Below, in pieces: positions 26,651-61,449 of a stretch of DNA of 64,000 nucleotides. Within the stretch, counting starts at the first letter, position 1, and the number at the start of each line of letters is the position of its first letter. A program made the translations under genes and the position numbers. This DNA comes from Macrostomum lignano (Eukaryota): NCBI GenBank assembly GCA_002269645.1, contig NIVC01002999.1, positions 1 through 64,000 on the forward strand. Direction: 5' to 3'. Below the pieces are notes generated by a model. It ran no database searches, was not told the DNA's origin, and saw only the letters and a program-made list of their open reading frames with translations.

Positions 26651-28016
26651 ACTTGTAGGCAGGTGCAGTCTCAACTGTTCGAGTTAGCAATGGAATAACT
26701 CCCTTATATATTTATTCTGGATTATTAAAGTACTTTTTTACACAATACAAACTTCCCTAACTGTTTTTGTAACTCTGAAATCGAAGTGAATTATTAAGTA
26801 GCAATATGAGCATTTCTTACGTAAACTTTAATAGCTTACTAGATAGAGGGAGCATAAACGCTTTTCCTTTCAGCCCATACTTACCTGTTGAATTGCTAGT
26901 AGTAAGGAATTGAGCTCTCTCACACCGACCAGTTATAAAGATACTTATTCTCTCCCGAGAAGAGCTCGCTTAGTCCATATTAGACGGTTTGCTCATTTTC
27001 TGCCAGTGCATATTTAATATTTCAATAACATTTTCAATCTTATTTTTTCACCAAGCAGGCAAGTTTTTTATTTCGTGGGAATCATAAAAAACTGCAGTTT
27101 TATGGCCATCCCGCGCTGTTTAATTTCTAATAAAGAGAAGCAGCTTTGTGCAATGCTTTATTATGAGTCTGAATTTGGAGTTTGAGTCTTTTTCTTGACA
27201 CAAGTACGAACTCTGGCCCAGTAAGACACTCTGTAGACATTTACTATGGACACGGTCGTACTATACATATGCTAAACTGCTCTCTCATCGTATCTGGAGT
27301 GTCTGTGTAGCGTCTTCAAGTATTCGGGGTCTTTAACTAGTGAGCATAGTCTCGTAGTCTCTGTGAAGAGACTCACCTTGATAAACACAAGCCGAGAGTA
27401 TATCAAGCCAAGCGAACAATACCTGTTGTTTGGGGGGAGTTGAGGGCCATTAATTTCAATCTTCTCTGTTCTGTAGCAGCGACAGCCCCAACAGTATCTC
27501 TTTTTAAGCACTTGAAGTTTGCCATTAAGCACTAGTTTTTATCTAGTCTTAAGAATCTGCTCGCAGGACATTGCGTTGGTAAGTCTCAATAATAGTATAG
27601 ATGTTGTCCATTAAATTCTTCCTTCAGATAGGCCTAGTTTATCCTTAATGCGTTCCATAATGCCAAACGTATGGGAGCAAACAGCTGGATAAACCGGAGG
27701 TGGGCTGATTAAGCAAACAATAAAAACTGCCAACGCACACGGGGAAGCAGACAGGGGGACACGGACGTATGGGGATCGCGGGTTGAGCTGACTAGCTATA
27801 GGAATATCCTATCTGTTGCCTCAGTATACTATATACAGTTCCGCATTATGTGGGCTGTCAGAACTTCCTGAGACTGCACTGCGGGGCTGAAATATGACAG
27901 TTTGATGGGGAAGAGAGAACAGACAGACCAGGGCCGTGTATATAGCTGGTGGGCGGCCATTCGTGCGTATTCAGACTCTAAGCCCTGTGTAACTCAACTT
28001 CCCTATAGCAACCCGT

Positions 28017-29888
28017 ATGCGTCGACGAGTCTCAAATCGTCCAATCTGGAATCCTAGCGCCGACGCGGCGGCCGAATCTCAGCTGCTGTCCGGCCTGGTG
28101 ACATTCCGCAGGAGAGCGGCCAAGCCGGGGCTGCTCAACACTCCGGCTGCTACGTTGGACTTGGACTTTGCCCGACAGCTCCAATCGCTGCGACTGTTGA
28201 ACAGCGATACGCTTCGCGAGGAAAATCCTCCTGGCTCTAGTGAAGCATCGAATAATTTGGATTCTAATGACGAATTTACGGCCATCAGTACCGATCTGCT
28301 GGTCACGGCTGCTGATGGCCAGCTGGAACAGAGCCTTCGCTGGCAGCAGCAGAGGCAACGGCAGCAGAGGCAGCAGCAGCAGCATCAGCACTTGACCTTG
28401 TCGCTGCCTCTTCTTGGCGGTCGGCTGAACTATTTTCTACGGGGGGCTGTCGATTCGCCTACGCCGGATCCTTCGGCATCACCATCGGTTGCTGCCAGAT
28501 CGGTCAATCAGCCAGGACGTCTTGCTTACCGAACGAGTCTGCCTGGGGAAGAGGGAGTTTCTCCCGACGAAGAAATCGCTCTCCTGCTGAGGTCGCGCTC
28601 ACCAACACGGGTTAAAATAGAGCAACGACAGCTGCTGAGTCCAGCGGATGCGTCATCGAAAACGTTGAAAACCCAATCAACCTTTGAGATAGAAAAACCT
28701 CCGATACAACCATCAAATTCTCCCACGGTTTCCATGGAGCCTCACCCAGTGGTATCCGCTTCAACAGGAACCATCGATCAGGGTGATTATAAAGGTCGTT
28801 TGTTTGTTCGCGGCGAACTAGCAATCTCAGCTGATGCTCAAGCGCAAGACAACAAACAGAAAGACGGTGAGAAGCAGAGGGAAAGTCCTGAAGCAAATGA
28901 CTTCAGTGAAAATATGCAAAATCGTAAGAGACGTGATGTAACGAAGAAATCGCTGAGAAATCATCGTGGAAAAGTTAACGAACAGCACATGCTCAGCAGC
29001 ATCGATGCCAAACCTCAGAGGCCTCCACAAACGGCACATCAAACTCCCCAGACGCATCAGCCTACATTGAACGGGAGAACAGCTGAATCAGAGGCACCGG
29101 AAATCCCAATAGCAACTGTTATAAGTCGACGAAAGCGAAAAGTTCAGAAGCAGCCAGTGGAACCGTATGCTCTTGATCGAGAGTCTCATAATCCCGAGCG
29201 GCACAGAGATGCCAGCTTCAGCCGAACTTGCAGCTGCCTGAGTCACTCTGATCAAAACTCCAGCCAGCAATTTGTAGACCAAGGTTTTCATCAGCCAGGC
29301 AACATCATTCCGTCAGAAAAAATCAGTCATCCACTGCATCGCCCGGCTCAAATGGAACCTACCGCCAAGCAGTCTCAAAATCCCGTTCCCGACTCAACAC
29401 AGCGGGTAGAGCGGCAAGAGACTCATCAGAACCAACTTGAAGCTCTCCATCTGGCAGAGGTTGCCAGCACGGAACTGCAGAGACGGCCGGTGCCGGACCA
29501 GTACCGCACAGCTCACCGCTTGGCCAAGGCGGCAAGCCAAGACGCCCAGTTTTCCGCATGGCTGCAAGCCGGCCGCGAGCCTGCAGACTTTTTCAGCTGT
29601 CGGACGAGCCCCAACGGCTACTATTCGTACTTCCATCGGCTGCCGCGCTACGACCGCGGCCTGCAGCCCTTTGCCGAGTTCCCGCCGACTCAGAGTCAAG
29701 CGTTGCAGCCGGGCAGCAGCAGTAAGAGAGGCGCCAAAACTTCGGCAATGCTTGCCTACGGCGGAAAAAATCCGGACAACTATTTGCCGCCGCCAATTCT
29801 GGTGCGCGTTCGGAGACCGTTGGAGAACCGGCGGGCCAAGCCGACACGAATTTCTGCTTTAGAAGAGTTGGAAACGAGCCAATATTAA
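28017..29888 (+). CDS. Single-exon hypothetical protein, 623 aa, largely low-complexity/disordered
   Basis: Uninterrupted 1.87-kb ORF with ATG and TAA, not repeat-derived; Q/S/P-rich; aromatic-rich C-terminal block (FSAWLQAG...YYSYFHRLPRYD); AG acceptor-like site just upstream of the ATG. Confidence 0.65.
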   Translation: MRRRVSNRPIWNPSADAAAESQLLSGLVTFRRRAAKPGLLNTPAATLDLDFARQLQSLRLLNSDTLREENPPGSSEASNNLDSNDEFTAISTDLLVTAADGQLEQSLRWQQQRQRQQRQQQQHQHLTLSLPLLGGRLNYFLRGAVDSPTPDPSASPSVAARSVNQPGRLAYRTSLPGEEGVSPDEEIALLLRSRSPTRVKIEQRQLLSPADASSKTLKTQSTFEIEKPPIQPSNSPTVSMEPHPVVSASTGTIDQGDYKGRLFVRGELAISADAQAQDNKQKDGEKQRESPEANDFSENMQNRKRRDVTKKSLRNHRGKVNEQHMLSSIDAKPQRPPQTAHQTPQTHQPTLNGRTAESEAPEIPIATVISRRKRKVQKQPVEPYALDRESHNPERHRDASFSRTCSCLSHSDQNSSQQFVDQGFHQPGNIIPSEKISHPLHRPAQMEPTAKQSQNPVPDSTQRVERQETHQNQLEALHLAEVASTELQRRPVPDQYRTAHRLAKAASQDAQFSAWLQAGREPADFFSCRTSPNGYYSYFHRLPRYDRGLQPFAEFPPTQSQALQPGSSSKRGAKTSAMLAYGGKNPDNYLPPPILVRVRRPLENRRAKPTRISALEELETSQY

Positions 29889-31533: not shown

Positions 31534-34500
31534 TTAATCGGTTTTAAAGACAGTCTTATAGCTGAGCCGGTGGTAAGCCAGCATCTGGTGAGTGTGAGCC
31601 CGCTCTCGCACGGCCAAGTCAAGCAGGTCTCGGTCGCATTTCAGCGCCACAGACAGGAAGCACTGGCAGGTGAACAGACAGCCTAGACCGATGGCCGTGG
31701 CAATGGCCAAGGCTGCCAGCATCTGCCGTAGCACCATGGCGGTGCGCCAGCGATCAGTCCGATAGGGCCCGAGCCTTTCCGGTACGCCGCAGTCGGTGCC
31801 GCCACCGTGGCACCAGTCCGACTCAAAGCCGTGGCCGAGGCATTCCAGGCCCAAGCAAGCACTGCGAGTTGAGACGCGAGTGAGACTCAGGTTTTAACTA
31901 TGTATTTGCGCCATATCCACATGCGTATTGATGAAATACGAATTGCCCACTTTGCTTAACCTTTGCTTATCGAGAAAGGCTGTAGCCTAGTGGTTAGAGC
32001 GACTGATAGGTCGCACTCAGAGCAATTTGTCTCCTTGAGCAAGACACTGAACTCTGCATTGCTTCAGTTCACCCAGCTGTAAAATGGGTGCCAGCATTAG
32101 CTGGGGTAATTGAGGCTGTGTGTGGCGACCTCTCAGTCCTTGGACTGAACAGCCGTAGGCAGCTTTCAGACGGCCGCGAAATTTAGGTGCATGGTTAGGG
32201 ATGCATACACCCTGAAAGTACTCCGAAAGGAATGGAACCTTGGGTACTTTGGTTGTCACAGTTGTTTGGTTGTTACAGTTGGACTGTAACAATAACAACA
32301 TACAATATTCCAGACGCCCGCCAACTTTACCAACGTGCATGTACCCGACGTTGATAGACGCTTATGGCAAATTGGTACTGTAGTATCGACGTATGGGACA
32401 TACAAAAACTTTTCACTTTTCCTCATTTACAAACTATTTGTTTTTTAGCCGTCTAAAATACTCAATTTGGGCCAAAAATTGCTCAAATCAATGCACGGCT
32501 GGTTCAGACCAATTTTAAATGACCCGTGAGCTTCTAACGGTGATTTGAACCGGCCTTAACAACATGCATCTCCCAATGGAAGTGTGTAAAAGAAATAGGT
32601 AGTTTAACTTGAAGCTCGTTCTTACCGACATAAAATCACAAAAGTCGGCTCTTAGCAAGCGACAATCATTCAACCGCCCTTAGACCTAAATCACCGATGT
32701 ACAAGCCGTATGATCACACGATCAATCTCTTGATCGTGATGTGCACTGTGAATGAGCCCATATAGTTCGACCCACAGCCGAAAAGAGGCGACATCAATTA
32801 CGAGCGTACCTGGGAATTACCCTCTTTGCGCACACGCACTCGCGCGGTAACCAAGGATGAATTCCTGACTGAAGACTACAATGGAGCATGACTAAGCTTC
32901 AAAAATGTGGCCAAGTAGTTTGAACAAAGTATTCGAGATTCGAATCTTAAATAACATACGTAGTATTATTGCATAGAACTAGAAAACATGGAAAAAAGGA
33001 GGGAATTCGAAACAGCGTAATGCTCACGTAGGTTTTCTACGAAGACTTTTTGAACCTTGGCGGTTGGCCAAGAATTCAAAAAAGCCGCAGAAAAGTCACT
33101 GCTTTCAATAAAAAAATAATTTCAATAACAACCCACCGACTGCGATGCCGCTCGCGTCGGTCTCCGCAGTCCGGATCGCAGGAGCTCCACGGTCCCCAAA
33201 CTGACCAGAGCCCGCGATGGAACTGGCACTTTGGGCCGTAGTGCGTAGCTGGGCACTGGCAGATGGCCTTGCCCCTGCTTGATACGCAGTCTCCGACTTC
33301 GCAAGGCAAAGACATGCACGGATCGTGGCGAAGCTGACAGTTGGGATCTCGTTCCTCAACGGACTGTTATGTAATGACGATCGAGCATAACTTTGAGACC
33401 GGTTGGTGATTAGGAGATGACGCGCAGGGTCCCTTTCAGCCATCGAAGCCTTTCTACCCGACCCTCGGAACTTTTAAAACTTCAATCCGGCCCGGTAATG
33501 TTTTATGTCTCTTCTCAGCTCTCTTCTCTCCTCTCACTTTCCCCCCGCTTCTTTTTACCTTCTCTCCCTCTCTCTATCTTTCCTCTCTCCCCGTCTTGCC
33601 TCCTCCCTCTCCTCTCTCCACTCTCTCCACTTTCTTCTCTCTCTCCTCTCTTCCCTCTTCTTTCCTCTTATCTTTTCTCGTATATTTTTCTCTCATCTCT
33701 CACCTCTCCTCTCTTCTGATCTCTCATCTTCCATTCTCTCCATTTTCCCCTCTCATCTGGCCCTTCATCATGATAAGCTAGATTCTCTATCTGGCCCTTG
33801 TGTTAGAAAGTCTGTCGACTCGTGCAATGAAGCTTTGGCGCCCCTGACGATGCCTTTTGCAGTTTGCAGTTTGCATATTTCTAACTTTTTCACACGGTAC
33901 GAGTAACTATTGCATCACCTACGACACACCTTAACATCTGTTGACTGTAAACACGTAACTCTTCAAACATATTTTACAAGGTAAAATAAGATCAAATATT
34001 AATGAGAATACATTCTTAATAAAGATTGCTCTTACCCCCGCACGTCTGCCACCAGTATCGATCAGCCAGCCGTTTTTGCACTGGCAGACGAAGAGATCTG
34101 TGCCTATCACTGGCGAGCACTCGCCTCCAGCATCCACATTGCAGGCTTGATTGCCAGTAGGCAGCCTGCCCTTTTCTGTTAACTGTCGTTCGAAGCAAGC
34201 ATTTCTTTCCGTATCGCATCTTGGGCCCATAAAGCCGGATTTGCAAAAGCATCGCAATTCGTTTGTTAGCGGGTCATATTGGCAGCTTTTTGTTCCAAAC
34301 ATTGAGCAGGGGTTGTCCATCTGTTCGAGAGAAGTGCGCATATGCAATGGGAATCGAGAAACCTTTGGGTACAATCTAGATATTATGTAACTAATCTTAT
34401 ATGGGCAACTTTGAAACTACCCCAAAGTTTATATAACTCAAGTCTGTTTTCACTCACTAAAAAAAGACAAGAAAGTTTCAAATCACTGTCAAAATTTCAA

Positions 34501-37500
34501 ATCGAGTGAGCTTAAAAATATTAACTATAGCATACAGTTATATCAAAAAGCAGTATAATGCATGAGGGGGCTTCTGGGACAAATTTTTTCACGTCCTCCA
34601 TAATCCCATTAAATCCATCCATATTATCCCCGACAGAATCAGAGCATAACAGGTGTCCTACTTGTTCCGAAAACTTCGAACGTAATCCCATTAAATCCAT
34701 CCATATTATCCCTGAATCAGAAAAAAGGGGTCACACTTGTTCCGAAAACTTCGAACATAATCCTCCTAACCTATCCTTCTTCCTCCACGACAGAATCAGA
34801 GCATAACATGTGTCCTACATAATCCACTGACATCCACTCATAGCAGCTTCGAAACAATCAGAAAAAAATCTGCATTCTTCTGCCCACATTCAATTCGCGA
34901 AACCAGATCCCAAAGACTTTAAATCATCAACGCAGGGTCCTTACCTTTTGAAAAAAAATTAAATTCTTAATAAAAATCTTTCCAGTTGTCTCTCCAGGTT
35001 CTTATTATACTCAGCCTCATCCATTGTACAAATCCAAATACCGATGCAATCTAGAATGCAGCGAGTACATAAGAAAATATTGGCCCGGCGTTGATATCAA
35101 TGCCCCTAATATTAATCAAGCACTTAAATATCACTGGTTTGAAAAACACGGAGCAGTCATTAACGATTTTGATAGCTATTATAACTTTGCTGAAGTTATA
35201 AGGCAGTTGTAGTAGCCAACTACAAGGTTGTACCTGGTGGCTTATATCGTAATTTTACAAGCCCGAAGACGACTCACATTCTCTCAATAATAATTGTTAG
35301 CACAAACTCCTCCCCGTTAAAATCGACACCAACTCCATCCTCTGTCTCAAACTGCAGAACGATTTCATGTATCTCTCTATTACTCAGAATCACTCTTTTC
35401 ACGGGATTTGGCTTTTGCACCAGCATTTGGCCACCAGCAACAGAGTTTGAAATGTTAAAAAGTATGTTGGTTCGTTTGCCCTTGAATATCCAATCAAGGC
35501 TCAGATTGCTGCGAATTAATATATTCAAGCCTTTGACAATATCTGCGATATTTGGCGCCAAGTACATACCGGATATTGGCCAGGACACAGCAACAGTGCC
35601 AGGCGCCTGCGGCGGGCTTTGGTCTGTGGCGCCACCATAAACTCTCTTTACAAATGCCAACTCGCGATACCAAGTGCCATCTCTAAACTCTGCCTCTGCG
35701 TCCTGATGAACTTGCAAGACAACTCTCATGACAGTTAGATAATAAGTTAATCTAACAGGAAACAGTTTACTTTCTGGTTTGCTTTCATCCGGTATCTCAA
35801 AATGCTTTCGTTTAGTGAAGACGTTCTCCAAGAAGTAATTATAAGTATCCACGCTCTGTGTGCTGACAGGAAATATCACAACCTCTGTTGTAGTACGCTT
35901 CCATTTGTAATAAAACTTGTTATTTTCCGCTGTCACATTGGGAACATTTGACCACCCAGTGAAATCATTGAGATAGACGTGGTAATTCGCCTCGGGATCC
36001 AAACGAAGTGGTTGCTCCAATTTTTGAATGAAGATTCCATTTGACTCAGTAATGCGACCCGCTACAGTGATTGGAATGCTCTCCTTAGAGTGTGAAACAA
36101 TGTTGTTTAGTCTTTCGGCTATGGCTTCTATTTTTTATTGAAAAAATTATTCAAACTTTACTAGACGAGTTATTGATCATATTGACCTTGATTTTCCTCT
36201 CAAATGCATAAATAATAAACAGATCAACAGCCGTTGCGGCACCAAATTTTTTCCGCTCGATATTAGTCACAATGTTAACAGGGCTATTGTCTGTAGGCAT
36301 TTGTCTTGCTGACACGTCAACTCCGAAAATTGGGTACAACTCTTTATGCTGCAGAGCAGTGGTAGCCATTCCATTATTCTCTTTTACAGCCAGGTCCACC
36401 AGTTCATTGAAAAATTTACTAATCTTGTTCTCCGGGAAATCTCCATTCTGTGGGCAATGCAGGGTATAAATTGTCACTGATCTCATGTTGAATCGATCGA
36501 ACGTTTCCATGTAGATATCTACCTACATTAGTCGTACTCCTCATGGTGACAAACAATAATGTACCTTGGATTGCTACAGGAGCCTTCTTTAATGCAAATA
36601 TTGTGTCTTGCGTCATTCCGCTCATCTCAGCACATATAAGCTGTATAAGCAACATCAATGTCTTTCTCAATCGCCTTCAAGTATTCAGCTTTGAGTGCAG
36701 TCTTGGGTTCAATAATTTCTAAGTACAGCTCCACGCCAGTTAGCTTTGGCCTTCGACTAAATTCCTCTGTTCCGATCATATCTAGTCAGTCTAAATGTGT
36801 AGCTAAAGTTGCTTGTTAACCGATTGAAACTATTACAGAAACTATTCATAAACCTCAAAGGTACAAAAATATCTACAGACCTAAACAGCGGATTCTTAGC
36901 AGCATCGTTCTCGCCAGCAAGAGCATAGTTGTATCTCTCCTTTTTCTTTTTGTAACCGGGGTCATCCACACCCCCTTTGTGCTCATTGGGAATAAAGTCA
37001 GCTCCACTCCCCAACTGGATGAAATCCGGGTTCTCAATCAAACACTGCGTGTCATAGACAATGCCAAAGTTGGCTATTCTCTCCAACTCTGTGCTTCCAT
37101 TAGACACGCTAATCTCTTTGAACATGTACGCCCAGAAGTTACTGATCAATGCCACATTTGCTTTGTGCTATCGTCATTTGCATGAGCAGCATCGTCTCCA
37201 CCTTTTGTCTTGAATTGGAAAGTCATGTAGCATCCACTTCTTAGACTGTGGACACTGACCAATGACGAGAAACCATTGTATGTGAAAGTCAGTGTCTGAC
37301 CTGGACCCAAATTAGTTTCATTTTGGTTCTCGTGACTCGGAACTCTAACTTGTGACGCTTTAATGGTGCTGTCACCTGTCATCGCTTAAAATTGGTTTGT
37401 TAATCTTGTAGAAAACTGGTGTCAGTGGGTCGTTCATTTTTTAACTAAAAATAAAATAAAATAAGAAATGAAGCAGAAAAGTTCATATCATATCTCTGAA

Positions 37501-49500: not shown

Positions 49501-50915
49501 TTTAAAGTCTTAGGGATCTGGTTTCGCGAATTGAATGTGGGCAGAAGAATGCGGATTATTATCTGTTTGTTTCGAAGATGCTATGGGTGGATGTCAGTGG
49601 ATTATGTAGGACACCTGTTATGCTCTGATTCTGTCAGAGATAATATGGATGGATTTAGGAGGATTATGGATGACGTTTTCGGAGCAAGTGCGGCCCCTTT
49701 TTTCTGATTAAGGGATAATACGGATGGATTTAATGGGATTATGTTCGAAGTTTTCGGAGCAAGTAAGACACCTGTTATTCTCTGATTCTGTCAGGGATAA
49801 TATGGATGGATTTAATGGGATTATGGAGGACGTGAAAAATTTTGTCCCAGAGGCCCCCTCATGCATTCTACTAAAAGCTGACTTACTTTGCATCTGTCAT
49901 AAATGACACAGGCTCGCTTGCTGAATGACCAGGTGGCGGTTTCGATGCACGTGCACTTGAAGTCTTTGTCGTACATGCCGTCGAGGTAAACCTCGCAGTT
50001 GTCAGTCATCGTATACGCCATGTCTACGCAAGGATTGTTCCGACATGGGTTTGGGCAATAGTGATCAATGACGTCTCCTTTTAGTGACATTTTGTGCAGC
50101 ATTCGGCAATACGAGAGCCAGAATGCGACACCGACAGAGTCAGCGCGAGTGTATAGGTCTTGGTCGACAACTGGCCTGCGTAGAGTCGTGCTGTCGTACG
50201 TGTTTATCTTGGTTGACATAAGTATAAGAATAAAACGCCTCCAAAAACATGCTACATCAAGCGGTTCTCTGCAGTGTAATGGACGCGATGTCCAGACTTT
50301 TTCTTCTTGATGAAATACTTTATCTTGTCGCATTGACTCCCAAGTTCCAACGAGAAATTCGCGAATATGATCCCGGTAAAAATAATTTTCCGTAATTTTC
50401 GCATCATCATCGCGAATTTCGTTGCCCAATAGATTCAGTAAATCTCGATTTAAGTCGAAATCAACGCTGAGAAGTTTATTGAAAGACAGTCTAACAGGTT
50501 CTCCAAGCGAGTTTTTTTCTGGCCGATTGAACATCCAGGAGTCAAACTTTCTTGTGGCTTCACGGTGGGCTAAAGACGATCCTGGGTACGTCGGCTTCAC
50601 AAAACTTTTAGTTGCATGCTTGTAGAATACGACCTCGGTAGCAACCTCTCTACTCAAGCCGGTGCGCAGTACTTGGGGAAAGCCGAACTGATAGGACCGT
50701 TTAGTGGGGTGCAGCATGTCGCCGAACGACAGCACGTGCGGATACATTCGATTCAGCTTGCCCATCGGGCGAGGCCGGAACAGCAAATTGGCCAGCTCGT
50801 AGGTTTTTTCTGCGTCTTTCGGGTCTCGATAGATACGTCTGGCCTGCTCGGTAGCTCCTGTTGTGTCCAATGCAGTTGCTAGCATATAAAATAGCAGAGG
50901 TACTAGCCTGATCAT
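31534..50915 (-). CDS. Type I membrane protein: signal peptide, uncharacterised ~270-aa domain, 4 EGF-like repeats, TSP1 repeat, TM, short tail (~622 aa)
   Basis: Exons 50915-49887, 34320-34036, 33363-33137 and 31861-31534 with phases 0, 0, 2. Joins read YDRCK|MDNPC, RAG|SVEERDPNC and HRSR|ACLG. TSP1 motif WSVWGPWSSCDPDCG; TM LAALAIATAIGLGCLFTC. Confidence 0.85.
31977..32195 (+). mobile_element. tRNA-derived SINE copy (head partly deleted)
   Basis: tgtagcctagtggttagagc head followed by ccttgagcaagacactgaactctgcattgcttcagttcacccagctgtaaaatggg. Confidence 0.8.
33505..33765. repeat. CT-rich low-complexity tract
   Basis: Polypyrimidine ctct runs; gives rise to spurious S/L/P-rich ORFs. Confidence 0.85.
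35274..36131 (-). CDS. Polinton minor capsid protein (penton-like); start codon apparently mutated ATG>ATA
   Basis: WSNVPNVTAENNKFYY and C-terminal IHEIVLQFETEDGVGVDFNGEEFVLTIII, typical of Polinton minor capsid; the frame is open upstream to AAAAA-ATA at 36131. Confidence 0.7.
   Translation of the reverse strand: MEAIAERLNNIVSHSKESIPITVAGRITESNGIFIQKLEQPLRLDPEANYHVYLNDFTGWSNVPNVTAENNKFYYKWKRTTTEVVIFPVSTQSVDTYNYFLENVFTKRKHFEIPDESKPESKLFPVRLTYYLTVMRVVLQVHQDAEAEFRDGTWYRELAFVKRVYGGATDQSPPQAPGTVAVSWPISGMYLAPNIADIVKGLNILIRSNLSLDWIFKGKRTNILFNISNSVAGGQMLVQKPNPVKRVILSNREIHEIVLQFETEDGVGVDFNGEEFVLTIIIERM
36151..37382 (-). pseudogene. Polinton major capsid protein (double jelly-roll type), frameshifted
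   Basis: Fragments 37382-37146, 37155-36757, 36670-36419 and 36510-36151 in different frames; motifs FVPLRFMNSFC and ELYPIFGVDVS; located next to the minor capsid gene. Confidence 0.7.
37468..37821 (+). CDS. Polinton hypothetical protein (coiled-coil-like)
   Basis: 117-aa ORF with an A-rich ATG context, divergent from the major capsid gene; may continue by frameshift into 37857-38096. Confidence 0.5.
   Translation: MKQKSSYHISELEKLAQAEKQVTALINKEQQSYNEFVQAATEFHKPGYTEAKKNIDTVKEAVDDIQESHLQNTLGKIPSSPGQPQAQQPGQPEAQPVQMKVTDNFFGPVLDDGKYIF
38143..38751 (+). CDS. Polinton hypothetical protein with a CAA/poly-Q-P tract
   Basis: Q/P-rich (CAA)n at 38170-38290; C-terminal LVVLLGAAKTG...EFVHILSKMLERKYI resembles a recurrent Polinton small protein. 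Confidence 0.45.
   Translation: MPDQEKVIRQQPQQQQPQQQLQQPQQQQQQPQQPQQQPQQQQPQQPPPPQQQKTQVEQILDQLDAVDPILVSQYKDRNPDTWRQLEQLSPERMKRINDRVFTPRLQQPSPGTSSSDQSFESPPSSSGKGMPEVYKRLVVLLGAAKTGMKDENRKEFVHILSKMLERKYIEQRARELLLSRFNKKIISSKNGTYFRKRRGQIL
38711..39087 (+). pseudogene. Small basic Polinton protein with GxG motifs (putative virion core protein), one frameshift
   Basis: MALIFEK...KRGSGL...RSGNGL...(frameshift ~38860)...KKGSGFKFD*. Confidence 0.5.
39112..39218. repeat. 21-bp tandem repeat, 5 copies, upstream of the ATPase
   Basis: aagtcccaaaatgacacatct. Confidence 0.9.
39259..39575 (+). pseudogene. Packaging ATPase (A32/FtsK-like), N-terminal part only
   Basis: FRCIVVGSGKT (shortened Walker A) and LHIYSPTLYQDEY; no Walker B follows. 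Confidence 0.75.
39572..39940 (+). pseudogene. 3' part of a Polinton hydrophobic-helix protein (possibly the so-called GasderminX-type adintovirus gene)
   Basis: LGSVGAACGLISAITGAVA...KK...ISRAIEDKFISEDEFKTI; 5' end absent. Family name is from recall of motif pattern, not from a search. Confidence 0.45.
39918..40317 (-). pseudogene. Adenain-like (adenovirus-type) cysteine maturation protease, frameshifted
   Basis: Manual translation gives GSHWVCW, YYFDSYG and LQGLSSDICGELC (His/Asp/Gln/Cys catalytic set); two frameshifts. Confidence 0.85.
40357..46201 (-). pseudogene. Protein-primed family B DNA polymerase (pPolB), interrupted by Gypsy and frameshifted
   Basis: SGW...SSYIELP...KACINVKNKDN; VVY|ADFEC split by the insertion; CHIC...VRDHCHYTGKFRGAAHNTCNL (endonuclease VII-like); YLDANNLY; KLANNSVYGKT; YTDTDS. 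Frameshifts near 45880, 41240 and 40995. Confidence 0.93.
42798..44799 (+). mobile_element. Rearranged, truncated Ty3/Gypsy element inserted in polB
   Basis: 4-bp TSD ATAT (42794-42797 and 44800-44803). Inverted gag start + PBS + LTR 3' end at 42798-42972. RNase H end (TDHKPL, DNPVADALSR), zinc finger and rve integrase (HIDLVGP, SDRGSQF, VERFHR). G-run PPT, then a 200-bp LTR TGTGGCG...CGCCACA at 44600-44799. Confidence 0.92.
46478..46804 (-). CDS. Small Polinton protein with a Gly/Ala-rich hydrophobic segment (putative core/membrane-active protein)
   Basis: KSGGILPLAALIPIIAGAVSAAGGVAGGIATAVK; A-rich ATG context. Confidence 0.6.
   Translation of the reverse strand: MTKIETRTINKLNKIIESKKPGLISIKGAKVKIDPIQQILQCNEQTHSITDEKSGGILPLAALIPIIAGAVSAAGGVAGGIATAVKAGNDRAHQLELQKDCKRQRYNN
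46821..47826 (-). CDS. Retroviral-like (rve) integrase of the Polinton; one frameshift in an A-run near the start
   Basis: HQADLLFLP...YALTVIDIASRY, TDPGKEF, QAFVERFN: DDE triad intact. ATG at 47826 is out of frame by one base at the A6 run (~47808). Confidence 0.9.
47856..48311 (+). pseudogene. Parvovirus-like phospholipase A2 domain protein
   Basis: IPGYKYFGPLNPL...PVNELDSVCMWRNVKY...WDKEML...KAKLGLG; in-frame TAG at codon 16; catalytic HD reads RN. Confidence 0.8.
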
Positions 50916-51337
50916 ACTTTTTTCAGTTGAGCTTACGTACTCTAAGGCAAAATTGTTGATAACGCGACGAGTGTAAAGCTTAGTATAAGTTTTTTAATCT
51001 TCTATTTGCTTTATTTCATTTTTACTCAAAGCATGACCATAGACGAATCATGCCCACAGCGAAATCCGCTTTCCAGCAAAAATGCTGCAACTAAAAATCT
51101 TTTTGTTGAACTATCTATGGCCTTCTATGAAAGACTTGTAAAGCTCAATAATGACCGTTGCATGTACATGCAATAAATTAGATTTACAAATAAACGACCC
51201 AGTTAAGCTGCATCTGCGTTGTACATGCGCGTAATTATTGGCAATAATTAGACCTAAAGAGATAATGTATCCCCCACTTGCCCCGGGCGAACGTCTATGG
51301 TCTCAGTGTGAATTTCATTTATTTGCTTCGGTGCAAA

Positions 51338-54034
51338 TCTAAATATACTAAATCTCTAATGTTTGTATGCTTGAATGAATGTCCATAATCTTCTATCTTA
51401 TATACTAAATCTGAAAATGTTTGTAACTTTGTTTATAAGTTTCGCATCTCCTCTTGAACCACTTGGTAGATTTTCGTCAAATTTGTTTCATTCGATGTGG
51501 AATTCTACTGGGACCATGTGGTCTAATTTTCATTTTGATGTCGTAGTGTGAAGCCTCTCAAATTGGAGAAATACTGTATTTCGCCTATCTAATTAGTGTA
51601 TTTTTCTCGCAGTCAGAGTTAAATTTTCAATTTTATATCTATGGTGGTCCGTGAAGTTGACTACGCGGCCGCAGCATCAGCAGCAGCAGCAGCGGCGGCT
51701 CGAGTCTAAATAAAGTCTTTCAATATATAAAGCTAATTATATAGTGTATTTTTCTCGCATTGATTTTATAACCTTGAAGTTCTTTAAGGTGAGTTCAACC
51801 GGTGAGTTCAACCGGTGAGTCTGTTCAACTTCGATTCATTCGTATTCGTGCTGGATTGGAGTGATTTGTCTGATCTTCTGTTTGTTTGTTTGTCGGCCTG
51901 AACCGGTCGACCTGTCTGAATTTCTGTTTGTTGTTCGATTATTTGTCGGCCTGAACCGGTTGACCGGTCTCAACAATTTCATGTGAATGTGTCTCTTAGT
52001 TTTTGATACCTGGGCGCGGGTGTGCTGTCGCTCATGCCGAAGAGTGAGTTAGTAAAGAGTCGGGAAGCAAAATTGCGTCGTCGGCAGGAAACAGCGGAGG
52101 AGCGTAATTCGCGGCTTGAGAAACAACTAGAGTATAGTCGGAAGCGTATACAGAACGAATCCATAAGTGCACGGTCTGACAGGTTAGATGCCGCGCGTGT
52201 TCGCGCGGCTGAAAGGCGAGCTAATGAGTCAGACGCAGGGCGTGTCTCTCGATTGAACGCCGCACGTGCCCACGACGCCGATATGCGAGCTACTGAGACA
52301 GACGCAGCACGCGCCTCAAGATTGGATGCTGCGCGTGTTCGCGCTTCGAAACAACGTGCCACAGAGACTGACGCAGTGCGCGCAGACAGACGGGACGCAA
52401 TTGGTATTCATGTCGCTAATAAACGCGCTACAGAGACTGATGTTGTACGGCATATCCGACTCGCGAACAATCGGAAGCGCGCAGACCTAAGACGCATTAA
52501 TATTCAAGGCTCAGGTGATGCTTCCATTAAGGAAAATGTTCCATTTCTACTGAAAGATGGGGTAAAAATCACTCCTATCAGAGGCGATGGCAATTGCTTT
52601 TTTCGGGCAGTATCTGATCAGTTTGCAGGAACGCCGTTGCAATATCTTGATCATCGCAAAATTCGAAGCTTAATGGCTACTGGTGCGTCCAGTTTGTTGA
52701 AGGGGCAGACCGAGCTACTGCAGTCACAAGGCCTCACAGTTAACGAGATTGTTTTTGAAACACGACAAGATCAAATCTATGTGAACAATTTCGTAGTGCC
52801 TCTACTCGACAGAATCTTTGATGTAGACTTTGAAATTTATCAACTTGACGATTGCGACACCAACAAGATGAACCTTTTTCAGGGTTCACTATCAGCCACC
52901 AGGCCACCTCTTGCCACTGTGAGGCTGCTCTATAATCGGCATATGGAGCATTATGAGTCATTGCGTCTGAATGACGATCAGGTCAATTTGATTGAAGCTT
53001 CTCGGCCTGATTCTCCTGTTATGATATCAATAGACTTCGACGAACCTGAGGAAGAACTCTGTCCAAATGCTAATACTCTTCATGATCAAAAAACAGTTCA
53101 CGATCTTGGACGCATGAACATACAGTGTGAATGGTGCTCTGGCCTTCGTTGGAAATCTGAGTCGATCGGAATTTGCTGCGCCAAAAATAAAGTACATCTC
53201 GATTCACGGACAGTTCCACAACTTTTAGTAGATCTGTATAACGGCAGTCATAGGCTAAGCAAAGAATTTTTGTCTCATGTTCGCACTTACAACTTTGCTC
53301 TTCATCTGACCTCATTTGGTGCGCGGCTTAACCAAATGAAAGGCTGGAATCCAAGTTTAATCATCAATGGCCAAGTGCATCACCATATCCGACCATTAAT
53401 TCCCGATGACTCCACGAGGTCTGATGGATGGCAAGTGTACTTCTTGGACAAGGAGTTGGACACGCGCCTACAATTTCATCGAGGCTTGAAACCAGAGCTG
53501 TTGCAGATTTTACAGACACTACTTCATGAAACGAACAATTATGCTCGCAGTCTCAAGGCAACGTTCGATATGTTAAGCTTCTTCGAGATTACGTTAAGAT
53601 TCAATGCTGCTGAAAATTTCAATTTGCTAGATCAAACTTTTGTTCTCAAACTTTCAAGCAAATTAACTACTACTTAAATTTGTCCCAGAATTTTTAATCG
53701 AATAAAACTAAACTAACCCAACTAACTAAACTATACTAACTAACTAAATTCACCCGCAAAAATACAATTGTAACCTTATGCCACATGCTAAAAGTAATAA
53801 TTAAAAGCGAGTCTCTGAAATAAAAAGTGATAAGTTTGCCCGCAATAACTTCAACATGTCCATGGTCGGATGCTTTTCTTACTTGTTCTGTATATCAGCA
53901 TACTTTTGAGTACAAAATGGACGTCGGTTTTATTTGATTGTTAATTTAGGCCTTAAAAATCCAATGGAAGATTGCGTCTAATCCAAAGAGAACTGTACAG
54001 TCTCCCCCCGAAGGGGGGGGGGCAAATTCTCTAG
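51338..54034 (+). mobile_element. Non-autonomous Helitron carrying a truncated Rep-Hel ORF
   Basis: 5' TCTAAATATAC/TCTATC starts at 51338 and 51392; 3' hairpin CCCCCCGAAGGGGGG then CTAG at 54031-54034. Confidence 0.8.
52022..53677 (+). CDS. Helitron ORF N-terminus: charged R/E/A repeats, OTU cysteine protease, zinc finger, Helitron N-terminal domain; Rep and helicase absent
   Basis: IRGDGNCFFRAVSDQ ... EHYESL (OTU); CEWC...ICC; SKEFLSHVRTYNFALHLTSFGA...INGQVHH...QVYFLD. Confidence 0.85.
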   Translation: MLSLMPKSELVKSREAKLRRRQETAEERNSRLEKQLEYSRKRIQNESISARSDRLDAARVRAAERRANESDAGRVSRLNAARAHDADMRATETDAARASRLDAARVRASKQRATETDAVRADRRDAIGIHVANKRATETDVVRHIRLANNRKRADLRRINIQGSGDASIKENVPFLLKDGVKITPIRGDGNCFFRAVSDQFAGTPLQYLDHRKIRSLMATGASSLLKGQTELLQSQGLTVNEIVFETRQDQIYVNNFVVPLLDRIFDVDFEIYQLDDCDTNKMNLFQGSLSATRPPLATVRLLYNRHMEHYESLRLNDDQVNLIEASRPDSPVMISIDFDEPEEELCPNANTLHDQKTVHDLGRMNIQCEWCSGLRWKSESIGICCAKNKVHLDSRTVPQLLVDLYNGSHRLSKEFLSHVRTYNFALHLTSFGARLNQMKGWNPSLIINGQVHHHIRPLIPDDSTRSDGWQVYFLDKELDTRLQFHRGLKPELLQILQTLLHETNNYARSLKATFDMLSFFEITLRFNAAENFNLLDQTFVLKLSSKLTTT

Positions 54035-60020: not shown

Positions 60021-60504
60021 ACAGAGGTCTAAAATTAAGGAGAAATTTAAGGTCGTGCAGACTCTAAGGAAGCCGTACTGGCTAATAATAGGTATTAGGC
60101 GCTAGGAAATTAGGCATTAGAGGAGTGAATTAGCTACTGCTGGACACCCTTGATCCTCGGAAAACGCTAGACTTTCGGACTAAAATTAGGAAATTAGACA
60201 GTGTCTTACCGCTCGGGCACTACACGCTATCACAAGGTTTCCAAGAAATCGTGTGAAATTAGAGAAGGGTCATAGTTCAGAGGCAGCCAATACTACTAGA
60301 AGTAGACAGCTTAGGGACAGGAACCAGAAAGTCTGTGAAAGGCTCAGTAGCTTTAAGGTGGAATTGCAGTTAGAACGAGTACGTCTGCGACAACTTGGTG
60401 ACATCTAGTGGGATCTAGAAGAAGGAGGAAACAAATCTGTAACAACTTGGTGGCAGCGTTAAGGGATCAAGAAACCAGCGGAAAGCTAACTAGATAAGTG
60501 AAAA

Positions 60505-61449
60505 ATGGCAGGAATTAATGACGCATTAGCGCTACTAGCTGAAGAGCTTAGGAATCGTTTAGAAATAGGACCAGCAAGGCATGTGAGAATTCAGAAGTAC
60601 ACGCCAAGCCAAGACATTAGGATCTGGTTGACAGCTTTTGATCAGAGGTGTGAATCAGAAGGAATCGAGGAGAATCATAGGAAAACTGAGCTATTAGCTA
60701 ATCTAGACTTAGCAACAGCGTTCGCCGCTGTACAACGACTTAATCTGCCAGAAGATCTAGGGTATGAAGAATTCAAGGAGCACTTGATCGAGAGATTTGG
60801 TAGGATAGGAAACGCGTCAGAGTTTAGGGAAGAGTTTAGAGGCAGAATGCAAGGAAGGAATGAGACGAAGGACGCTTATGCTGATGCGCTGATTGAGCTA
60901 TCAGATAGAGCCTTCCCGAACATGAATGCAGAACAGCGAGAGGAAGAGATAGTTGAGCAGTTTATCAAAGGAGTTAGGATTCCGCCAGATACTAGGGAGA
61001 AGTTAATCTTTGCTCAGCCAGCGAATTTGCAGGAAGCTAGGCGAATGCTAAGGCGAATTGAAGCCGCATGGCAACTATCGCACAAAGGAGGTGTTAGGAT
61101 GATGAAAGAGGGAGAAGGAGAGCAAGAGAAGAAGCTCCAAGATTTAGTTCAGCAGCAGAAGAATGAGTTAGAGCAACAGAAAAAGCTGATTCAGGAGCTG
61201 ATGGCGCACAAGCCACCACCTATGGCTAGACCGCAGCCATGCCCAGCTCAGATGCCGCGACAGAATTATCAGCAGCAACCGGCATTTCAGCCGAGAGTTT
61301 CGGCATATTATCAGCCTAGACCTAGGAGAGAGTTTCCGATTCGCTCTTATTCGCCGCAGCCAGGAAGGTGTGCAATTTGCCAGCAACCCGGCTCAATAAG
61401 GCCTGGTATAGGTCACCAGTGCCGCGTGAATCGCAAACAGGGAAACTAG
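60505..61449 (+). CDS. Gypsy Gag
   Basis: WLTAFDQRC, RMQGRNET..AYADAL, EQFIKGV, C-terminal CAIC...HQC knuckle-like motif. Confidence 0.9.
   Translation: MAGINDALALLAEELRNRLEIGPARHVRIQKYTPSQDIRIWLTAFDQRCESEGIEENHRKTELLANLDLATAFAAVQRLNLPEDLGYEEFKEHLIERFGRIGNASEFREEFRGRMQGRNETKDAYADALIELSDRAFPNMNAEQREEEIVEQFIKGVRIPPDTREKLIFAQPANLQEARRMLRRIEAAWQLSHKGGVRMMKEGEGEQEKKLQDLVQQQKNELEQQKKLIQELMAHKPPPMARPQPCPAQMPRQNYQQQPAFQPRVSAYYQPRPRREFPIRSYSPQPGRCAICQQPGSIRPGIGHQCRVNRKQGN

Follow-up and report, generated by a model that had tools for sequence, protein, structure and literature searches.

A broken Polinton beside the splice donor of the only open copy of a Macrostomum lignano gene

The alpha adintoviruses are the described viruses that the element reported here most resembles, and the sections of Starrett et al. 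used here (PMC8502044) list for them a gene set of PolB, rve integrase, ATPase, adenain, hexon and penton, PLA2 and pX. In vertebrate genomes 96% of Maverick loci are eroded, according to the parts of Barreat and Katzourakis on which we draw (PMC8097293). Polinton DNA lying inside a gene that is still spliced is described in the available extract on C. elegans eri-6-7 (10.1101/2024.01.15.575659), and an extract of another study mentions Orthopolintovirales insertions in Rhabditophora in passing (10.1101/2025.04.19.649669). No published account of the present locus was found in the literature on Polintons in the genus or in flatworms, and the papers retrieved on intronic insertions near splice sites were mostly on human splicing.

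The window analysed in this study is a stretch of 64,000 nt of the Macrostomum lignano assembly GCA_002269645.1 (contig NIVC01002999.1, positions 1 to 64,000 of the forward strand). It holds a broken Polinton/Maverick of the alpha-adintovirus-like kind within the first intron of a host gene, and the features of both are as follows.

31534..31861, minus strand: host exon 4, end of the TSP1-like repeat, hydrophobic segment and stop (joint inferred from frame, AG acceptor and homologue alignment)
33137..33363, minus strand: host exon 3, EGF and start of the TSP1-like repeat
34036..34320, minus strand: host exon 2, EGF repeats (PF00008)
34546..34551, plus strand: left target-site duplication AAAAGC, exact; empty-site copies have one AAACGC
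34552..35009 (end approximate), plus strand: left terminal inverted repeat (TIR), about 450 nt, with inner tandem subrepeats
35274..36131, minus strand: penton or minor capsid protein, open, 285 aa; its predicted model resembles the mavirus penton (E 8.3e-5)
36151..37437, minus strand: major capsid protein (double jelly roll), broken by five frameshifting indels and two stops
37468..39087, plus strand: two unnamed family ORFs (about 400 and about 170 aa in sisters), broken
39259..39576, plus strand: remnant of the packaging ATPase with 109 of 266 aa and a shortened P-loop, stopping at a deletion at about 39575
39918..40317, minus strand: adenain-type protease with two frameshifting indels
40357..46201, minus strand: protein-primed DNA polymerase B (pPolB), frameshifted and split by a nested insert (PF03175, E 3e-10)
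42798..44799, plus strand: nested Gypsy LTR-retrotransposon fragment, 2,002 nt, GC-rich (PF17917, PF17921, PF00665)
46339..46804, minus strand: Protein-X-domain ORF with one frameshifting indel (Adeno_PX PF05829, E 3e-6)
46821..47822, minus strand: Polinton rve integrase, open over 333 codons (PF00665, E 6e-10)
47856..48311, plus strand: parvovirus-type phospholipase A2 ORF, broken (PF08398, E 5.7e-10)
49416..49872 (start approximate), minus strand: right TIR
49873..49878, plus strand: right target-site duplication AAAAGC, equal to intron positions +9 to +14
49881..49886, minus strand: intact splice donor GTAAGT of host intron 1
49887..50915, minus strand: first coding exon of the host, with a signal-peptide-like start, the N-terminal domain of the family and the first EGF repeat

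The element spans 34552-49872 (15,321 nt) with the termini AGTATAATGC at the 5' end and GCATTCTACT at the 3' end, the end letters being AGTAT.. and ..CTACT (AG..CT), and has the TIRs of several hundred bases and the 6-bp target-site duplication that characterize Polintons/Mavericks. Two other copies of the host gene, on contigs C2566 and C1996 of the same assembly (G000), carry at the insertion point a single AAACGC, identical to AAAAGC in five of six letters, and the insertion with 6-bp duplication is thereby proven; an exact duplication of this length would arise by chance at a fixed place with a probability of about 6e-4. Read on the minus strand, the element starts at intron position +15, 14 nt behind the start of the donor, and host intron 1 is 239 nt without it and 15,566 nt with it. 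The initial annotation was accurate in describing two TIRs, AG…CT termini, an exact 6-bp duplication, a GTAAGT donor (49886-49881) only 14 nt away and an intron enlarged from roughly 240 nt to 15.6 kb, and the empty-site alleles that it proposed as a check have now been found in the form of the two empty-site gene copies. Its coordinates (34546..49886) pointed to the right locus, but they took in the left duplication and ran on to the donor. In six sister elements with both ends found, the duplication was exact in four, matched in five of six letters in one and was absent from one.

The gene content identifies the element as a Polinton/Maverick, with a protein-primed PolB, its own rve integrase, which is distinct from that of the nested Gypsy fragment, and a double-jelly-roll major capsid protein. 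The polymerase and integrase assignments of the initial annotation were borne out by the PF03175 and PF00665 matches, and the jelly-roll matches removed the ground on which it would have been downgraded to a non-viral transposon, namely a lack of capsid folds. The capsid fold was scored on a sister's 431-aa ORF, as the gene here is in pieces; this ORF matches PF21738 (E 6e-9), its fold matches the Sputnik and PBCV-1 capsid proteins (E 1e-13 to 1e-11, best 1.3e-13), and all of its 431 residues are covered piecewise by the DNA of the present element. The single-jelly-roll fold was confirmed on the penton's own ORF, which is 94.7% identical to that of one sister without any break; the model (mean pLDDT 63.6) has Sputnik and adenovirus chains as its next matches after the mavirus penton. 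The packaging ATPase and the adenain are remnants here and were assigned by the sisters' ORFs, which match Pox_A32 (PF04665, E 7.5e-7) and Peptidase_C5 (PF00770, 21.9 bits against a cut-off of 21.3), respectively. The "full morphogenesis module" claimed before thus stands as far as homologues of capsid, penton, ATPase and adenain are concerned, but the ATPase is truncated and the capsid and protease genes are frameshifted. The pPolB piece gave no PDB sequence match at E 0.1, the two unnamed family ORFs matched no Pfam family above cut-off, and a search with Rfam at the gathering threshold returned no match over 30000-54000 and hence no group I intron there. For the OTU-like domain expected at the PolB N-terminus of alpha adintoviruses, Pfam gave no match on 44770-45876; a Cys..His pattern in this stretch may resemble vOTU. 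About 1 kb inside the element (48365-49415) was matched by none of 29 other loci and is a variable accessory region, and contigs in two of four RNA-like runs partly skip this stretch (48540/49375).

Compared with the alpha adintoviruses of the Mayetiola class, as far as the sections of PMC8502044 used here describe them, the element shares a pfam03175-type PolB, an rve integrase, an FtsK/A32 ATPase, adenain, the hexon and penton folds, PLA2 and pX domains (here PF03175, PF08398 and PF05829), inverted terminal repeats and an animal host. The fusion of PLA2 and pX is absent: both here and in the sisters they form two ORFs on opposite strands, whereas those sections describe one PLA2X gene (PMC8502044). 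The capsid is only 7-13% identical to named viral models; in BFVD an Adintovirus sp. model ranked second at 10% identity. Unlike them, the present element is a fossil copy. With the degraded vertebrate Mavericks, as portrayed in the parts of PMC8097293 used here, it shares 6-bp duplications, AG..CT TIRs, two gene modules, secondary insertions and erosion, whereas its end motif is AGTAG..CTACT rather than (AGT)2 or (AG)3, and its accessory genes are of invertebrate type (PMC8097293).

The locus had been presented as a complete 15.3-kb virus, and this reading was rejected on account of a deletion of 1.6-1.8 kb, the frameshifted capsid, protease and pPolB genes, and a 2-kb nested Gypsy piece that had gone unmentioned. 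Ten sister loci were fetched; the DNA missing at 39575 is present in all eight that span this place, the other two being truncated themselves. The deletion removed 157 of 266 residues of the ATPase, left none of the 269 residues of a coiled-coil ORF, and left 127 of 242 residues of the next ORF. The pPolB gene has several frameshifting breaks, pX and PLA2 are broken as well, and only the penton and the integrase are still open, so that the element falls outside the "intact" Mavericks of the consulted parts of PMC8097293, in which all core genes are uninterrupted ORFs. The Polinton's own DNA amounts to 13.3 kb, against 14.9-16.7 kb in six sisters. The erosion of TIRs and viral genes noted initially agrees with these breaks and with the TIR mismatches given below.

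The Gypsy fragment and its 4-bp duplication (ATAT) make up 2,006 of the 15,321 bases. It was assigned to the Gypsy LTR retrotransposons by an RNase H lying before the integrase, a purine tract, a TG..CA LTR and a primer site. Its layout is an inverted block of LTR end, primer site and gag start (42804-42972), followed by RNase H, integrase, purine tract and a 200-nt 3' LTR (44600-44799); what we take to be the primer site and the gag start were named from the letters. The piece is absent from eight of eight sister Polintons and 92-100% identical to other genomic Gypsy copies, and is therefore younger than the Polinton. Its build is odd, with one true LTR end, an internal inversion, six extra bases at the other end and a clean 4-bp duplication, and none of 39 other scored matches spans the inverted join; this looks like an aberrant, one-ended integration. 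A Ginger-type transposon, considered for a perfect inverted repeat of 52 nt (42921/44748), was rejected, as the repeat consists of two copies of the LTR end.

The family is large: the genome yielded 650 TIR candidates and 348 capsid-gene candidates, 40 of each being scored. Nineteen young sisters have 97-100% mutual capsid-gene identity, and the capsid is open in 13 of them, while the capsid gene here is 87-88% identical to all scored sisters. Against the sisters the capsid has a dS of 0.45 and a dN of 0.047, and the adjoining genes have dS values of 0.07 (penton), 0.40 (integrase) and 0.04-0.10 (pPolB). These values suggest that the element is a mosaic and that much of the capsid distance is a subfamily difference. 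The dS contrast between the adjoining capsid (36151-37437) and penton (35274-36131) genes was noted as gene-scale mosaicism within the Polinton family. The penton has a dN of 0.023 here versus 0.004-0.009 between sisters, the central pPolB has a dN of 0.033, and the TIR pair differs by 9.5-10.3% over its whole length and by eight mismatches (5.3%) in the outer 150 nt. From dN and the outer TIR mismatches, we estimate the private decay of the element at about 2-3% per site. This is of the same order as the divergence of the host introns between the Polinton-bearing and the empty copies (5.6-6.8%), and the insertion would thus be about as old as their split; the whole-TIR value of 10%, taken alone, would place it before the split. 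In five of six sisters the TIR pairs are 0-2.2% apart; the remaining pair, L051/L052 on contig C66 of G000, is that without a matching duplication, and with TIRs 13.4% apart it is either a recombinant or a chimeric contig. Contigs of sister Polintons also occur in four of four RNA-like runs (39574-48300), including pPolB free of the Gypsy insert (joint 42793/44800), and the family appears to be transcribed.

The four host exons together encode an open protein of 622 aa, in line with the earlier statement that the host exons show no decay. The product is predicted from its sequence to be an EGF/TSP1 cell-surface membrane protein of a flatworm family. A search of proteins clustered at 50% found eight relatives, among them tapeworm, fluke and monogenean proteins at E 1e-5 to 1e-3. 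The EGF-like domain proteins UniRef100_A0A4S2LJA3, A0ABD2QFC5 and A0A0R3U4E8 are 23-39% identical over the matched stretches, and the host protein shares with its flatworm relatives a layout of a hydrophobic start, an N-terminal domain of about 280 aa, EGF repeats, a TSP1-like repeat and a C-terminal hydrophobic segment; the records of these relatives give no function. Exon 1 had no match among longer proteins in a sequence search and no usable match in the ESM Atlas. The M. lignano protein A0A1I8IR78 (95%) agrees in its residues with the broken copies and has no N-terminal part.

DNA and protein searches found only three copies of the host gene in the assembly, and among them only the Polinton-bearing one is open. 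The two others, which are new here, are both empty-site and frameshifted. C2566 and C1996, which are 99.8% alike, have three defects in common: a 2-bp indel that brings a stop four codons behind the start, a frameshift of 8 bp in exon 1, and a TGA codon in exon 2. A further TGA occurs in C1996. A profile of nine flatworm homologues, found through the downstream part of the protein, matches residues 52-85 (15.3 bits; none for the reversed control), which lie upstream of the frameshift, and the frame of the Polinton-bearing copy is therefore ancestral. Three copies fit the three-subgenome model of M. lignano in the parts of PMC10733133 used here. The depths of the two exon types were 12:23.8, 17.8:26.1 and 9.2:14.9 in run X13, 137:203 and 107:149 in X17, and 13.9:9.1 and 8.5:14.7 in X2, ratios that would suit one diploid versus two further subgenomes as outlined there (PMC10733133). 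We assigned no subgenome, because the local divergences (3.2-6.8% and 0.2%) differ from the averages stated in those parts of PMC10733133.

Sequencing runs, all in the form of assembled contigs, were aligned with 32500-51500, which leaves the exon 4 joint outside. None of them is recorded as RNA, and they were taken as RNA-like solely because intron cover is missing. The joint 34320/49887, proposed initially as an RNA-seq check, was found with GT-AG ends in four of four runs from four studies, and the joint 33363/34036 in two of the four. The absence of spliced host transcripts, named before as the sign of an inactivated gene, is thus not what the runs show. On the two sides of the joint, the contigs differ from the Polinton-bearing copy by 0+1 letters in X1, 0+0 in X16 and 0+4 in X7 (plus three gaps in X7), and from C2566 by 9+17, 5+13 and 9+39 letters, respectively; in X18 the short side has only 21 letters. 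The runs have no cover at 32500-33133, X1 has none in intron 1 and the depth near exon 2 is about the value expected from the exon alone, all of which is RNA-like. X1 also holds the frameshifted exon type, and the broken copies are therefore transcribed too. The DNA run X13 has the left host-TIR junction with the intron letters of this copy at a depth of 12, the empty site having a depth of 23.8. The right junction is missing from the loose contig ends of this run, and its support may not be independent, since the assembly may have been made from X13. In none of the runs are exon letters and the element joined on one RNA molecule; the animals behind the RNA-like runs likely carry the insertion.

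The best explanation, which we consider probable, is that a broken Polinton sits at +15 of a short intron and that the resulting 15.6-kb intron is spliced out through the original, untouched sites. Most likely the element is an old intronic fossil which the host tolerates passively and which happened to miss the donor. Its rve integrase would have produced the 6-bp duplication, and the insertion would have been harmless because it disrupted neither the U1-binding donor (+1 to +6) nor the 231-nt acceptor side. Since the duplication covers +9 to +14 and leaves donor and acceptor side untouched, ordinary splicing of a long intron may suffice. The element would then have decayed neutrally by some 2-3% per site, and with the loss of frame in the other two copies the worm would have come to depend on the Polinton-bearing one, from which the relic could be removed only by deletions sparing the donor. 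The family has hundreds of copies, and with so many, one that lands 14 nt from a donor calls for no particular cause; the short distance probably came about by chance. On its host-sense strand the intron contains 12 AATAAA words and six viral genes, and some transcript may possibly be lost to these words. Tolerance by the host gene, proposed at the outset, accords with the spliced joint in all four runs and the open exons, and the "long time" attached to it is a moderate one, with a decay of about 2-3% per site.

An unlikely alternative is that the insertion is polymorphic and damaging, the spliced RNA coming from an empty allele in other lines and the assembled allele being silent or weak. 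DNA runs X17 and X2 contain the exon letters of this copy with the junction in none of six contigs each, which would suit this reading and leaves an empty allele of the Polinton-bearing copy possible, but such branches are pruned from contigs. The X7 allele with its four letters and three gaps would suit it as well, as would the eri-6-7 case, in which, according to the extract used, large Polinton remnants lower downstream-exon expression (10.1101/2024.01.15.575659). On the other side, X16 has no difference from the Polinton-bearing copy and X1 has one, no contig in the four runs carries this copy's intron letters across the empty site, and the four exons stayed open through about 2-3% of element decay while both empty copies broke.

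Assisted splicing, to which we give little probability, would have the TIRs of about 450 nt pair in the pre-mRNA, loop out 14.4 kb and restore the old distance between donor and acceptor, making tolerance TIR-dependent. The predicted TIR duplex (-684 kcal/mol) begins just behind the donor, both TIRs survive although 1.7 kb inside was lost, and TIR-derived repeats enable trans-splicing at eri-6/7 in C. elegans according to the extract (10.1101/2024.01.15.575659). However, divergence in the TIRs here has been no slower than in coding DNA, and their changes (10 G.U-compatible versus 14 A.C) have no G.U bias and give no indication of selection for pairing. Long introns in general need no such help to be spliced. 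In its boldest form, equally doubtful to us, the only working copy of a surface-protein gene found throughout flatworms would be locked to a 15-kb provirus fossil that masks itself beside splice sites by such looping. The eri-6/7 elements caused inversions and trans-splicing through direct repeats according to the extract used (10.1101/2024.01.15.575659), whereas the present locus has a single element with the usual inverted layout, is not rearranged, and has dead other copies of the gene. A Polinton contig wrongly joined into the intron is hardly credible, for although assembling the three-copy genomes of this species is difficult and yields many chimeric scaffolds according to the parts of PMC10733133 used here, and the right junction is absent from the loose contig ends, the 6-bp duplication is exact and agrees in five of six letters with the empty site, the X13 left junction carries this copy's intron letters, and the element is unlike every scored sister (best 88%, capsid gene) and hence no collapsed repeat.

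The element itself is ordinary, degraded Polintons being the rule and hundreds being present in the genome. The striking point is that the copy with the giant intron is the survivor of three, a natural experiment in which two short-intron copies are broken and the copy with a 65-fold longer intron is open and spliced. The locus permits allele-resolved tests in a polyploid worm of a giant intronic insert beside a donor and of the role of TIR pairing, and it shows that the real protein escapes gene models based on the empty copies.

Upstream of the host gene, the likeness to the empty copies ends at 51338, about 420 nt before the start codon, and 51338-53677 contains an ORF of 556 aa with STPR repeats and a weak OTU match, presumably Helitron-like; a second large insert thus seems to lie close to the promoter of the open gene copy. 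An ORF of 631 aa at 27993-29888, which has no Pfam match, converges on the host gene and is 95% conserved in C2566, and an ORF of 315 aa at 60502-61449, likewise lacking a Pfam match, is in our assumption gag-like. A tandem array of M16 (insulinase-like) peptidase genes occupies 1100-24400, with several long, simple tandem repeats lying between the genes or within them.
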